A stretch of 64,000 nucleotides of DNA, taken from NCBI GenBank assembly GCA_903832635.1, contig CAILCF010000002.1:7665-71664 (forward strand), given 5' to 3'. Below are positions 45,837-45,970 of the stretch, piece after piece; position 1 is the stretch's first letter; the number at the start of each line of letters is the position of its first letter. The DNA is from an uncultured bacterium. GTDB taxonomy: Bacteria; Patescibacteriota; Saccharimonadia; Saccharimonadales; Saccharimonadaceae. The notes below the pieces were generated by a model that worked only from the letters and a program-made list of their open reading frames with translations, did not search any database and was not told the DNA's origin. The translations under genes were made by a program, and so were the position numbers.

Positions 45837-45970
45837 CTTGAATCCACGACATATCTATGGAATGTCGGGGGTGAGAACTGCCAGTCGGCAGTTCGCAAGG
45901 AAACAAACTCTTGAAAACTAGTTTTCAAAGATGTTTTTTCGGGGTCGCGGAACGTGACCAAGTCCCACCA
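45837..45970 (+). repeat. tRNA-linked T-arm-matched module, family 1 (Lys-CTT copy)
   Basis: cttgaatccacgacat (antisense T-arm, 15/16), atgtcggggg (sense), 32-nt core gggtgagaactgccagtcggcagttcgcaagg, a variable hairpin, cggggtcgcggaacgtgaccaa, then caagtcccacc (11/11 to the tRNA). Confidence 0.7.

Follow-up and report, generated by a model that had tools for sequence, protein, structure and literature searches.

Several described systems share one feature or another with the element reported here. Miniature inverted-repeat transposable elements (MITEs), REPINs and the palindrome-flanked elements of the IS200/IS605 kind are short, non-coding, structured and present in many copies, carry no transposase of their own, vary among strains, and break the assembly of metagenome-assembled genomes (MAGs). 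Site-specific non-LTR elements such as R2, and the short interspersed nuclear elements (SINEs) mobilized by them, enter structural-RNA genes by target-primed reverse transcription; they are co-oriented and co-transcribed with the target, which loses a few bases (2 bp in the case of R2), and copies are truncated or rearranged on one side. In the Mauriceville and Varkud retroplasmids of Neurospora, hybrid complementary DNAs (cDNAs) start at the CCA end of a tRNA and recombine homologously at the tRNA gene. The non-canonical tRNA introns of archaea of the Thermoproteales, which have been proposed to transpose between tRNA positions, are small structured inserts whose families are common to different tRNAs. 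The attL and attR sites of phages and integrative and conjugative elements (ICEs) contain a partial direct repeat of a tRNA beside the intact gene, while the IS110 bridge RNA and the omega RNA of TnpB/IscB are structured scaffolds of about 100 nucleotides (nt) with a target-identical flank and both sense and antisense copies of the target nearby. The element considered here, M1, was found behind three tRNA genes in a 64,000-nt stretch of DNA from an uncultured bacterium of the Saccharimonadaceae (GenBank assembly GCA_903832635.1, contig CAILCF010000002.1, positions 7,665 to 71,664), hereafter the window, and then in other genomes. It seems to be a miniature mobile element of a kind not described before, and the reading that we favor, tentatively and on the basis of sequence comparison, is that of a non-autonomous mobile structured element, probably mediated by RNA or cDNA, that would depend on an enzyme encoded elsewhere.

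The window holds eight tRNA genes (ARAGORN and Rfam) and three M1 copies, at 45872-45958 (+), 31578-31665 (+) and 20853-20954 (-), the Lys, His and Pro places at which a first-pass annotation of the same sequence had reported a tRNA-trailing module. That module had been given as about 120-145 nt long; M1 proper, TGAGAAC...GTGAC, measures 87 (Lys), 88 (His) and 102 nt (Pro), the rest of the interval being tRNA-derived flank. A covariance model built from relatives in other genomes scored the His copy at 99.9, the Lys copy at 97.0 and the Pro copy at 39.8 bits, and found no further M1 above 19 bits in the window, where the weaker matches were reverse-strand or partial overlaps of the same three copies. 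The Lys and His cores had been described as nearly identical, and a 31-nt block, GGTGAGAACTGCCAGTCGGCAGTTCGCAAGG, is indeed exact in both (chance matches expected, 0), with CGGGGTCGCG..CGTGACCAA common to all three copies. Also as described, the Pro copy differs by one nucleotide, an addition, in the loop of the first hairpin and by a further hairpin, of 19 nt, within the last loop.

Each window M1 interrupts the T-loop of a partial duplicate of the tRNA upstream of it, and 5' of the sense piece of each unit lies an inverted copy of the 3' part of the same tRNA. Taking the Lys unit as an example, the order is tRNA, terminator-type hairpin, inverted tRNA 3' part, short loop, sense piece, M1 and tRNA 3' part. 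The inverted copy runs from TGG, the complement of CCA, back to about tRNA position 44, its inner part preserved and its outer part decayed. The sense piece comprises 8-10 nt of the variable loop and the 5' strand of the T-stem, with G53 as its last base before M1, and on the 3' side of M1 the tRNA restarts at C56 and runs for 11-16 nt before similarity fades. Positions T54 and T55 are typically absent at the M1 junction across the family; in the window, the Lys junction fits this 2-nt loss, while 4 (His) and 3 (Pro) missing nucleotides were scored because the first flank bases differ from those of the parent. The first-pass picture of a second T-arm with an insert therefore stands as far as the flanking T-arm halves are concerned, but the arm is not intact. 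Likewise, the antisense T-arm copy that it described is present but longer, reaching the TGG opposite CCA, and the hairpin that embeds CCA proved to be the intrinsic-terminator-type hairpin of the tRNA, whose CCA/TGG stem is also found at module-free orthologous His sites. The features of the three units are as follows.

45704..45780, plus strand: intact tRNA-Lys(CTT), parent of unit 1 (ARAGORN; Rfam tRNA, 74.8 bits).
45778..45820, plus strand: terminator-type hairpin with CCA in the 5' side and TGG in the 3' side of the stem, then a T-run (read from the sequence).
45818..45852, plus strand: inverted tRNA-Lys 3' part, uninterrupted, starting at the CCA complement; inner 16 nt, cttgaatccacgacat, matching at 15/16, outer part decayed (sequence and family-wide position profile).
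45862..45871, plus strand: sense variable-loop and T-stem 5' strand, atgtcggggg, ending in the obligatory G and pairing with the inner inverted copy.
45872..45958, plus strand: M1, short form of 87 nt, with P1, GCAAGG linker, P2, CGGGG linker and P3 with the G.U pair (97.0 bits; minimum free energy fold identical to the consensus fold, z = -3.2).
45959..45969, plus strand: sense T-loop 3' part and T-stem 3' strand, caagtcccacc, 11/11, with tRNA positions 54-55 absent before it.
31424..31500, plus strand: intact tRNA-His(GTG), parent of unit 2 (ARAGORN and Rfam).
31538..31569, plus strand: inverted tRNA-His 3' part, outer part decayed, inner part attgaatccacgac.
31571..31577, plus strand: sense T-stem 5' flank, tcgtggg (His).
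31578..31665, plus strand: M1, short form of 88 nt (His; 99.9 bits; fold z = -4.1).
31666..31677, plus strand: 3' flank caattcccatca, in which attcccatca is the T-loop 3' part and T-stem 3' strand of tRNA-His.
21040..21115, minus strand: intact tRNA-Pro(TGG), parent of unit 3 (ARAGORN and Rfam).
20968..20994, minus strand: inverted tRNA-Pro 3' part, about 21/25 identity, inner part cttcgacc.
20955..20963, minus strand: sense T-stem 5' flank, ggtcgaagg, after a GAAA loop (Pro).
20853..20954, minus strand: M1, long form of 102 nt (Pro), with extended P3 and alternative P2 (39.8 bits; fold z = -4.9).
20836..20852, minus strand: 3' flank caagtcctttcaccccg, of which the segment aagtcctttcaccccg matches tRNA-Pro at 16/16.

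Scanning one genome per species with the exact core pattern returned at least 118 stretches, all but one of them from MAGs labelled Saccharibacteria, Saccharimonadia, Patescibacteria or "bacterium". Loci, or contig pieces of 8 kb, from these other genomes are designated here by L numbers. MAGs of Ca. Saccharimonas aalborgensis are among those with M1 (L049, L061). Several genomes contain four or more M1 loci each among the matches listed, and the covariance model adds more divergent copies within the same 8-kb pieces. The sole core-pattern match outside Saccharibacteria-type MAGs, again among the matches listed, is L003, from a Lysobacteraceae MAG; its positions 1970-2322 were discarded as an unrelated high-GC repeat that shares the palindrome GAACTGCCACTGGCAGTTCGCAAG and has neither a tRNA context nor the rest of M1. 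Viral contigs gave 0 matches to the core pattern. As the first-pass annotation had supposed, no Rfam family accounts for the module: at gathering thresholds Rfam 15 returned only the tRNAs in the window, and permissive scans of two units gave a best E of 0.12, all of it microRNA or snoRNA noise. Literature searches by topic and by core sequence found no description of M1, and in the group II intron paper that names Saccharibacteria, TM7x serves only as an outgroup.

An adjacent tRNA on the same strand could be matched to 99 of 126 copies, and the observation that the flanks follow the neighboring tRNA extends to these 99 further copies in other genomes. Sixty-four have the downstream layout (tRNA, terminator, inverted tRNA 3' part, short sense piece, M1, tRNA 3' part), essentially all of them in the T-loop. 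The other 35 have an upstream layout, in which the tRNA 5' part, from its first base to a point x, is followed by M1, then by 8-15 nt past x, an inverted repeat thereof that is near-perfect and has a centre of 0-3 nt, a spacer, and the intact tRNA; the spacer, 20-45 nt between inverted piece and intact tRNA, contains a strong extended -10 box. Here x lies in the D-arm (after nt 23-25), in the anticodon loop (after nt 37), in the variable loop or in the T-loop. Overall the T-loop is the commonest target, followed by the D-arm and position-26 hinge, the anticodon loop and the variable loop, and M1 was found at more than 25 tRNA species.

These junctions obey a simple rule. In all 79 junction pairs that were scored, M1 directly follows a G; in 77 this G is itself preceded by G or A, and in 62 exactly two parental nucleotides are absent, most of the other 17 being artefacts of aligning decayed flanks. 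An M1 inside another M1 (L011, GGG|GT|CGCG) obeys the same rule, as does an M1 in the hairpin loop of a small RNA (L069, L013), whose uninterrupted orthologue lies in the window at about 2226-2336 (-). The possibility, raised by the first-pass annotation, of a miniature element that targets T-loop DNA and copies its target comes closest to the evidence (the element is discrete, has fixed ends, is present or absent at a given site and sits in a duplicated target), but T-loop specificity did not hold, as M1 also occurs in the D-arm, the anticodon loop, the variable loop, another M1 and an unrelated small RNA. Every one of the 99 tRNA-assigned copies is in tRNA sense, and the bias along transcription is about 50:1; the only antisense loci are L058 and L115, where the tRNA part starts at the CCA complement. 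Orientation in the window follows the gene and not the replication strand, the Pro unit being on the minus strand while the sign of the GC skew does not change except for a dip at 36-48 kb. The motif RRG/NN (two purines, the second followed by G, then any two bases) is everywhere, yet of about 120 copies not one is located in ordinary intergenic DNA. As to the small RNA itself, the window version is of a hairpin type, GCGGGUGACGUUCGGUGGGGCAACCCC...GGACGGCAGGACCCGC with a T-run, folds with z = -3.1 and has no Rfam match; in the L069 and L013 orthologues M1 lies within a GGGG-loop-CCCC hairpin with no duplicate nearby. Tandem arrays were also seen, with two or more identical repeats of module, flank and terminator or promoter (L038, 1-620; L051, 1730-2010; L059; L164), and these presumably arose by unequal recombination between duplicated tRNA parts.

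M1 is 86-103 nt in size with the fixed ends TGAGAAC...GTGAC, and forms three helices, P1, P2 and P3, joined by GCAAGG and CGGGG linkers that are invariant in 41 copies. These are the 41 short-form copies from other genomes that make up our first alignment, in which P1 is invariant since the search pattern fixed it; there, 96.6% of the cells are paired against about 40% with slid partners (from 25% to 44% in all), and double changes occur in 171 cells against 43 in shuffled data. A second alignment (A7), of 48 copies found with the covariance model and fitted to it, has double changes at 27 of 30 pairs, including all eight in P1, and in 284 cells against 62 in shuffled data; a MAFFT alignment (A3) gives the same picture for P2 and P3. 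The covariation that had been called for as a check is present in these alignments. One G.U pair in P3 is present on the tRNA-sense strand in 46 of 46 copies, and because it would be a C.A mismatch on the opposite strand, the folded strand is the tRNA-sense one. Together, the strong covariation and the invariant G.U pair indicate from the alignments that it is the folded single strand that matters, and the functional form of M1 would be such a strand in tRNA sense, either RNA or sense single-stranded DNA, and most simply RNA. The window copies fold into the consensus structure (z from -3.2 to -4.9), and the compensatory changes on one strand are those generally expected of a structured non-coding RNA.

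Filled and empty versions of orthologous sites, another check that had been proposed, were seen at Gly, Phe and His loci. At tRNA-Gly(CCC), an orthologous upstream unit is common to L118 and L054, and within it L118 has a second M1 (86 nt) replacing CG in the D-arm of the pseudo-copy; the two are otherwise collinear, and the L118 insertion has no target duplication. At tRNA-Phe, a complete upstream unit is present in L062 and absent in L100, the two being identical up to the -10 box and in the tRNA. For the His locus we compared 80 orthologous metagenome loci, defined by a neighboring protein 72-96% identical, in 63 of which tRNA-His was called: 15 have M1 behind the tRNA, about 5 have a different module, and the others have the terminator only. 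L138 and L144 have the same terminator sequence and the unit only in L138, placed right after ...TTTGG; L138 and L150 carry the downstream unit, and L144 and L137 are empty, their flanks joining cleanly after the terminator. In L150 the unit is the same as in L138, the terminator is another one, and TTATTTGG stands on both sides as an 8-bp direct repeat. The closest relative found, L125 (protein 96% identical), has no M1 at His and another module there. M1 is mobile, being gained or lost between close relatives, and it shows the generic marks of a mobile element: it keeps the same ends in unrelated contexts, and orthologous sites may be filled or empty. A search for strain polymorphism at the Lys locus of the window yielded none, as contigs with an identical neighboring protein all carry the unit or break there. 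Several independent assemblies of one strain (L120, L122, L123, L124), which encode the protein of window 46070-46969, end 110-470 nt upstream of that gene; since these ends fall in or near the Lys M1 unit, the repeat breaks short-read assemblies. In a separate observation, the Arg(TCT)-Gly(TCC)-His cluster is inverted between the window (30412-31508) and L125 (6468-7563), with a 36-nt relic of the window His terminator at the other inversion breakpoint, and the orientation of the Gly and His tRNAs varies among the 80 orthologous loci, which suggests that tRNA-derived inverted repeats promote inversions.

The form of the tRNA duplicates provides further clues. Wherever a tRNA copy among those examined bears M1, it is a truncated duplicate, with an intact gene alongside if the contig reaches far enough (ARAGORN), and even the most complete M1-bearing copy, L052, is 3'-truncated. 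Because the loss of 2 nt in the T-loop or D-arm inactivates a tRNA, and because the tRNAs are single-copy, the absence of M1 from any sole complete gene is what selection would be expected to produce. The gap from the M1 unit to the intact gene is 60-100 nt and gene-free. Among downstream copies with a full-length 3' part, 24 of 32 end within 3 nt of CCA; L002, L005 and L114 run on through the terminator T-run, as do L025 and L029 when indels are allowed (three, or five), and these copies are the youngest. About one third of the upstream copies begin exactly at tRNA position 1, and about a dozen more 1-5 nt upstream of it; similarity stops outside the tRNA start even where tRNA identity is 46-55/55. 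The inverted segments copy uninterrupted tRNA across the insertion point (L077, L088, L109), as in the inverted palindrome TCGAGTCC-A-GATTCGAACC of L077, and in downstream units they begin at TGG after the terminator. Along a locus the copies switch from sense to antisense and back to sense, turning at the terminator hairpin and near position 45. Position by position, conservation is seen in the inner inverted copy and in the T-stem halves that adjoin M1, and decay, mostly from G:C to A:T, in the acceptor-stem parts. A promoter of their own was looked for in the downstream units and none was found.

From the boundaries at tRNA and transcript ends, and from the near-perfect palindromes, we infer that the duplicates are copies of tRNA transcripts or of the gene. 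M1 is inserted directly 3' of a purine run ending in G, where it takes the place of the next two nucleotides. If it is the RNA- or cDNA-mediated element that we tentatively favor, M1 itself may enter abundant structured RNAs at the RNA level. The tRNA transcripts, or the gene, would be copied with snap-back and template switching in a retroposition-like manner by an unlinked polymerase, and the copy would then recombine next to the parent gene. A bolder possibility, which we consider rather unlikely on what the sequences offer, is that M1 and its sister modules described below would be RNA-level transposons, that is, folded RNAs cut out and inserted in the exposed loops of structured RNAs. If so, chimeric and parental tRNA transcripts would be turned into DNA and form sense-antisense-sense arrays around most Saccharibacteria tRNA genes, and this would mean bacterial retroposition without a linked reverse transcriptase, along with a new insertion chemistry (after G, two nucleotides replaced). 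Full fold-back mechanisms (Campbell-type circle integration, long staggered cuts, snap-back cDNA and break-induced template switching) were considered and set aside, as each covers only part of the data and none accounts for the promoter-bearing spacer of the upstream units.

Several findings weigh against an RNA or cDNA route. No enzyme for the process (polymerase, nuclease or ligase) was identified, and no reverse transcriptase, transposase or integrase was seen among the roughly 33 window proteins scanned. Of 181 tRNA calls, 180 end in an encoded CCA, the exception being a miscall inside a module; as CCA is encoded in the tRNA genes, the CCA test for an origin from processed RNA is uninformative, and the CCA boundaries could come in part from the base of the terminator hairpin and not from an RNA end. 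A few older upstream pairs share promoter-proximal sequence (L109, L041), and a promoter-bearing spacer of 20-45 nt is not predicted by a simple cDNA model. The antisense copies in L058 and L115 need extra template switches or a DNA-level target, the 8-bp repeat of L150 could be the target-site duplication of a DNA-level insertion, and the in-situ compensatory changes between the orthologous copies of L054 and L118 would also fit a host function.

The main alternative is a miniature transposon acting at the DNA level, moved in trans by a transposase or recombinase that would recognize folded single-stranded DNA or hairpin loops (candidates being of HUH/IS200-IS605 type, of IS110/IS1111 type, or a serine recombinase), in which case the tRNA duplications would be repair products, made for instance by fold-back priming at the terminator palindrome and selected for keeping one tRNA intact. 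The fixed ends of M1 and its presence or absence at orthologous sites agree with such a transposon, as does the occurrence of both orientations; its stem-loop-junction targets form in single-stranded DNA too, DNA hairpins tolerate G.T pairs, turn-backs with 0-3-nt centres resemble the products of DNA fold-back or hairpin ends, the L150 unit is flanked by a direct repeat, and RecA, RuvB and competence genes are in the window. We nonetheless think it unlikely, as M1 lacks terminal inverted repeats and the target loses two nucleotides in place of any consistent duplication; no transposase is linked to it at 117 loci or in the window, ordinary intergenic DNA contains not one of the roughly 120 copies in spite of ubiquitous RRG/NN sites, the roughly 50:1 orientation bias follows transcription, and the duplicates stop at tRNA 5' ends and at CCA. 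Less probable again is a structured RNA useful to the host and produced from tRNA transcription units, with the tRNA-like flanks as its limits and with spread as a secondary effect of recombination in D- and T-arms. It might act as a decoy against nucleases or integrases that target tRNAs, take part in processing or quality control, or form the RNA subunit of a ribonucleoprotein. Such a role would sit well with the very strong covariation, the invariant G.U pair and linkers, the compensatory changes in orthologous copies, the conservation of the T-stem halves by M1 and of the inner inverted copy while outer flanks decay, the strong -10 boxes before upstream units, which are kept between species (L054, L118), and the presence of some trailing unit at six of the eight window tRNAs. 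It is harder to reconcile with patchiness among close relatives (M1 at 15 of 63 His loci), with module families that are interchangeable at one site (at His, M1 in the window and another module in L125), with downstream units that lie behind a terminator and have no promoter, with M1 copies in non-tRNA contexts devoid of flanking homology, and with nested and tandem copies such as selfish repeats form. As for the tRNA-specific cis-acting RNA or decoy that the first-pass annotation had entertained, the presence of M1 in some close relatives and its absence from others speak against its being essential for tRNA biogenesis.

The same annotation had also listed recombination scars of an integrative element, which would make the units attL/attR remnants and the module a conserved attP arm. 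A partial duplication of the tRNA 3' part beside the gene is the classic integrase signature, and the T-loop and the anticodon loop are known integrase crossover sublocations. M1, however, lies exactly at the would-be crossover with 2 nt lost and no uninterrupted identity block, it is found at more than 25 tRNA species, in D-arms, in itself and in a small RNA, the upstream units duplicate the 5' part of the tRNA, the module has RNA-type covariation, and there is no integrase or cargo nearby, all of which makes this explanation very improbable, to the point that it is effectively excluded. The same can be said, with slightly more conviction, of M1 as an intron or split-gene linker of functional tRNA genes. 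Its positions (D-arm, 37/38 region, variable loop, T-loop) do resemble those of non-canonical archaeal tRNA introns, and the complementary sequence adjoining the module brings to mind the split tRNA genes of Nanoarchaeum, but no full-length M1-bearing tRNA copy occurs among those examined and the intact gene stands alongside, removal of M1 leaves the tRNA two nucleotides short, and the ends of M1 lie inside the P1 and P3 helices and not in a bulge-helix-bulge. Two further candidates were set aside: an antisense guide (an H/ACA-like pocket with 2 nt unpaired) was rejected for the invariant G.U pair and other wobbles on the tRNA-sense strand, and an omega or bridge RNA is made improbable by the lack of a nuclease or recombinase linked to M1 at the 117 loci and by flanks that are not pre-programmed.

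Compared with the described systems, M1 differs from each in defining ways. Its ends, TGAGAAC... and ...CGTGAC, are not complementary and belong to different helices, which is not the terminal inverted repeat of a MITE; nor is there a fixed target-site duplication, since 2 nt are lost in 62 of 79 junctions and the 8-bp repeat of L150 is open to another reading. Unlike MITEs and their kin, M1 has an asymmetric three-helix fold with strand-specific G.U pairs, lies within tRNA-derived sequence instead of generic intergenic DNA, replaces two target nucleotides, and is accompanied, at each primary copy, by a fold-back duplicate of the target. With regard to IS200/IS605-type features, M1 has hairpins at both ends; RRG is the only constant target feature, and two nucleotides are lost. 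Bridge or seek RNAs of the IS110/IS1111 type would be accompanied by a recurrent adjacent open reading frame (ORF) family, which was not found, and the target-derived sequence lies outside the conserved helices; more generally, in contrast to bridge and omega RNAs, there is no adjacent recombinase or nuclease gene at the 117 loci, and the target match is outside the M1 fold and not in its loops. As the flanks differ with every M1 copy, they are insertion products and not pre-programmed guides. Where an integrase att remnant would keep an identity block, M1 interrupts it, and M1 units differ further from attL and attR in having the element at the crossover point, 5' parts duplicated as well, inverted copies and no integrase. 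Host copies that are truncated and 2 nt short do not behave as intron-containing tRNA genes; the archaeal introns are located in the sole functional gene, have a bulge-helix-bulge and are precisely spliced, whereas M1 is in truncated pseudo-copies and removes 2 nt.

Retroelements offer the closest parallels in mode of operation, if only by analogy. The boundaries at the tRNA 5' end, at CCA and at the terminator T-run fit a retroelement or SINE, although no reverse transcriptase was found among the window proteins or at the 117 loci. M1 would resemble R2 and SINEs in its structural-RNA target and small target loss, and SINEs in a reliance on an unlinked enzyme; those elements are eukaryotic, however, while M1 has no poly-A or other 3' tail and uses many tRNA positions, and its sense-antisense-sense target arrays have no counterpart there. 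A likeness to the Neurospora retroplasmids may be seen in the copying of a tRNA from its exact 3' end, joining by template switch, placement beside the cognate gene and duplication of tRNA sequence. Such a plasmid, on the other hand, is mitochondrial, autonomous, 3.6 kb long and equipped with its own reverse transcriptase, and M1 is a chromosomal bacterial element of 86-103 nt inside tRNA sequence. M1 lacks the defining features of Rfam families, MITEs, integrase att sites, tRNA introns and, as far as the window and the 117 loci show, bridge or omega RNAs, and answers only to the broad notions of structured RNA and mobile element. We rate it as lying outside the known kinds, a rating that an ordinary transposase encoded at an unlinked site could still change.

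M1 is one of several module families with one architecture, and trailing units are found behind six of the eight window tRNAs. Units of a second family, M2, follow Lys-TTT at 2021-2215 (+), Arg-TCG at 45288-45467 (+) and Arg-TCT at 30226-30412 (-), and are ordered as terminator, inverted tRNA 3' part, small hairpin, sense T-stem piece, module and T-loop 3' part. The M2 motif reads ...G[CT]RTAGTGCAG..hairpin..AGCAAACGGAGGAG..GCCGAT/GCGAT, and its insertion point is about 3 nt deeper in the T-loop than that of M1. M2 was also seen in L016, L019, L062, L070, L086, L093, L125, L175, L182 and L200, and a third family, M3, in L006, L032 and L088. In addition, an upstream-type unit that lacks M1 is left as a relic ahead of the tRNA-Lys(CTT) promoter, at 45576-45646 (+); it is made up of the tRNA's first 18 nt, the hairpin cagacag cttgc ctgtctg and an inverted copy of positions 18-35.

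With respect to linked genes, no protein family recurs near the 117 Saccharibacteria-type loci, and neither TnpA nor TnpB was seen in the 64-kb window or near those loci. A 232-aa ORF at 30570-31268 (+), between tRNA-Arg(TCT) and tRNA-Gly(TCC), has an HTH_23/HTH_28 (helix-turn-helix) domain, is weakly similar to the DNA-binding ends of IS3 and IS630 transposases, and is missing from the spacer in some relatives (L009). It was rejected as a transposase, having only the N-terminal helix-turn-helix and no transposase core. The ORF at 31682-32464, next to the His unit, was likewise rejected as a partner, as it encodes a secreted or membrane protein that is not associated with the module elsewhere. 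The window also contains a heliorhodopsin gene at 27814-28578 (-; Pfam E = 1e-97), whose neighbors are of the sort usual in Saccharibacteria, with genes for ComEC, type IV pili, RecA, RuvB, RNase Y and phosphoketolase.

If this picture of M1 is right, tiny structured elements colonize tRNA-derived sequence by a mechanism unlike the known transposon, intron and integrase systems of bacteria, and they do so in Saccharibacteria, hosts whose genomes are very small and otherwise contain little mobile DNA. On a practical level, elements of the M1 type break metagenome assemblies at tRNA loci, and their units, which need masking or annotation, yield spurious partial tRNA calls and misleading "tRNA fragment" features in genomes of the candidate phyla radiation. 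The invariant G.U pair and linkers provide a concrete motif for a ribozyme or a protein-binding RNA. Should the RNA or cDNA route be true, this would be the first SINE-like retroposition described in bacteria, and would point to an unrecognized polymerase or RNA-joining activity. For the Saccharibacteria themselves, M1-type elements reshape the surroundings of most tRNA genes, and inversions of tRNA clusters between close relatives go together with the inverted repeats that they bring.

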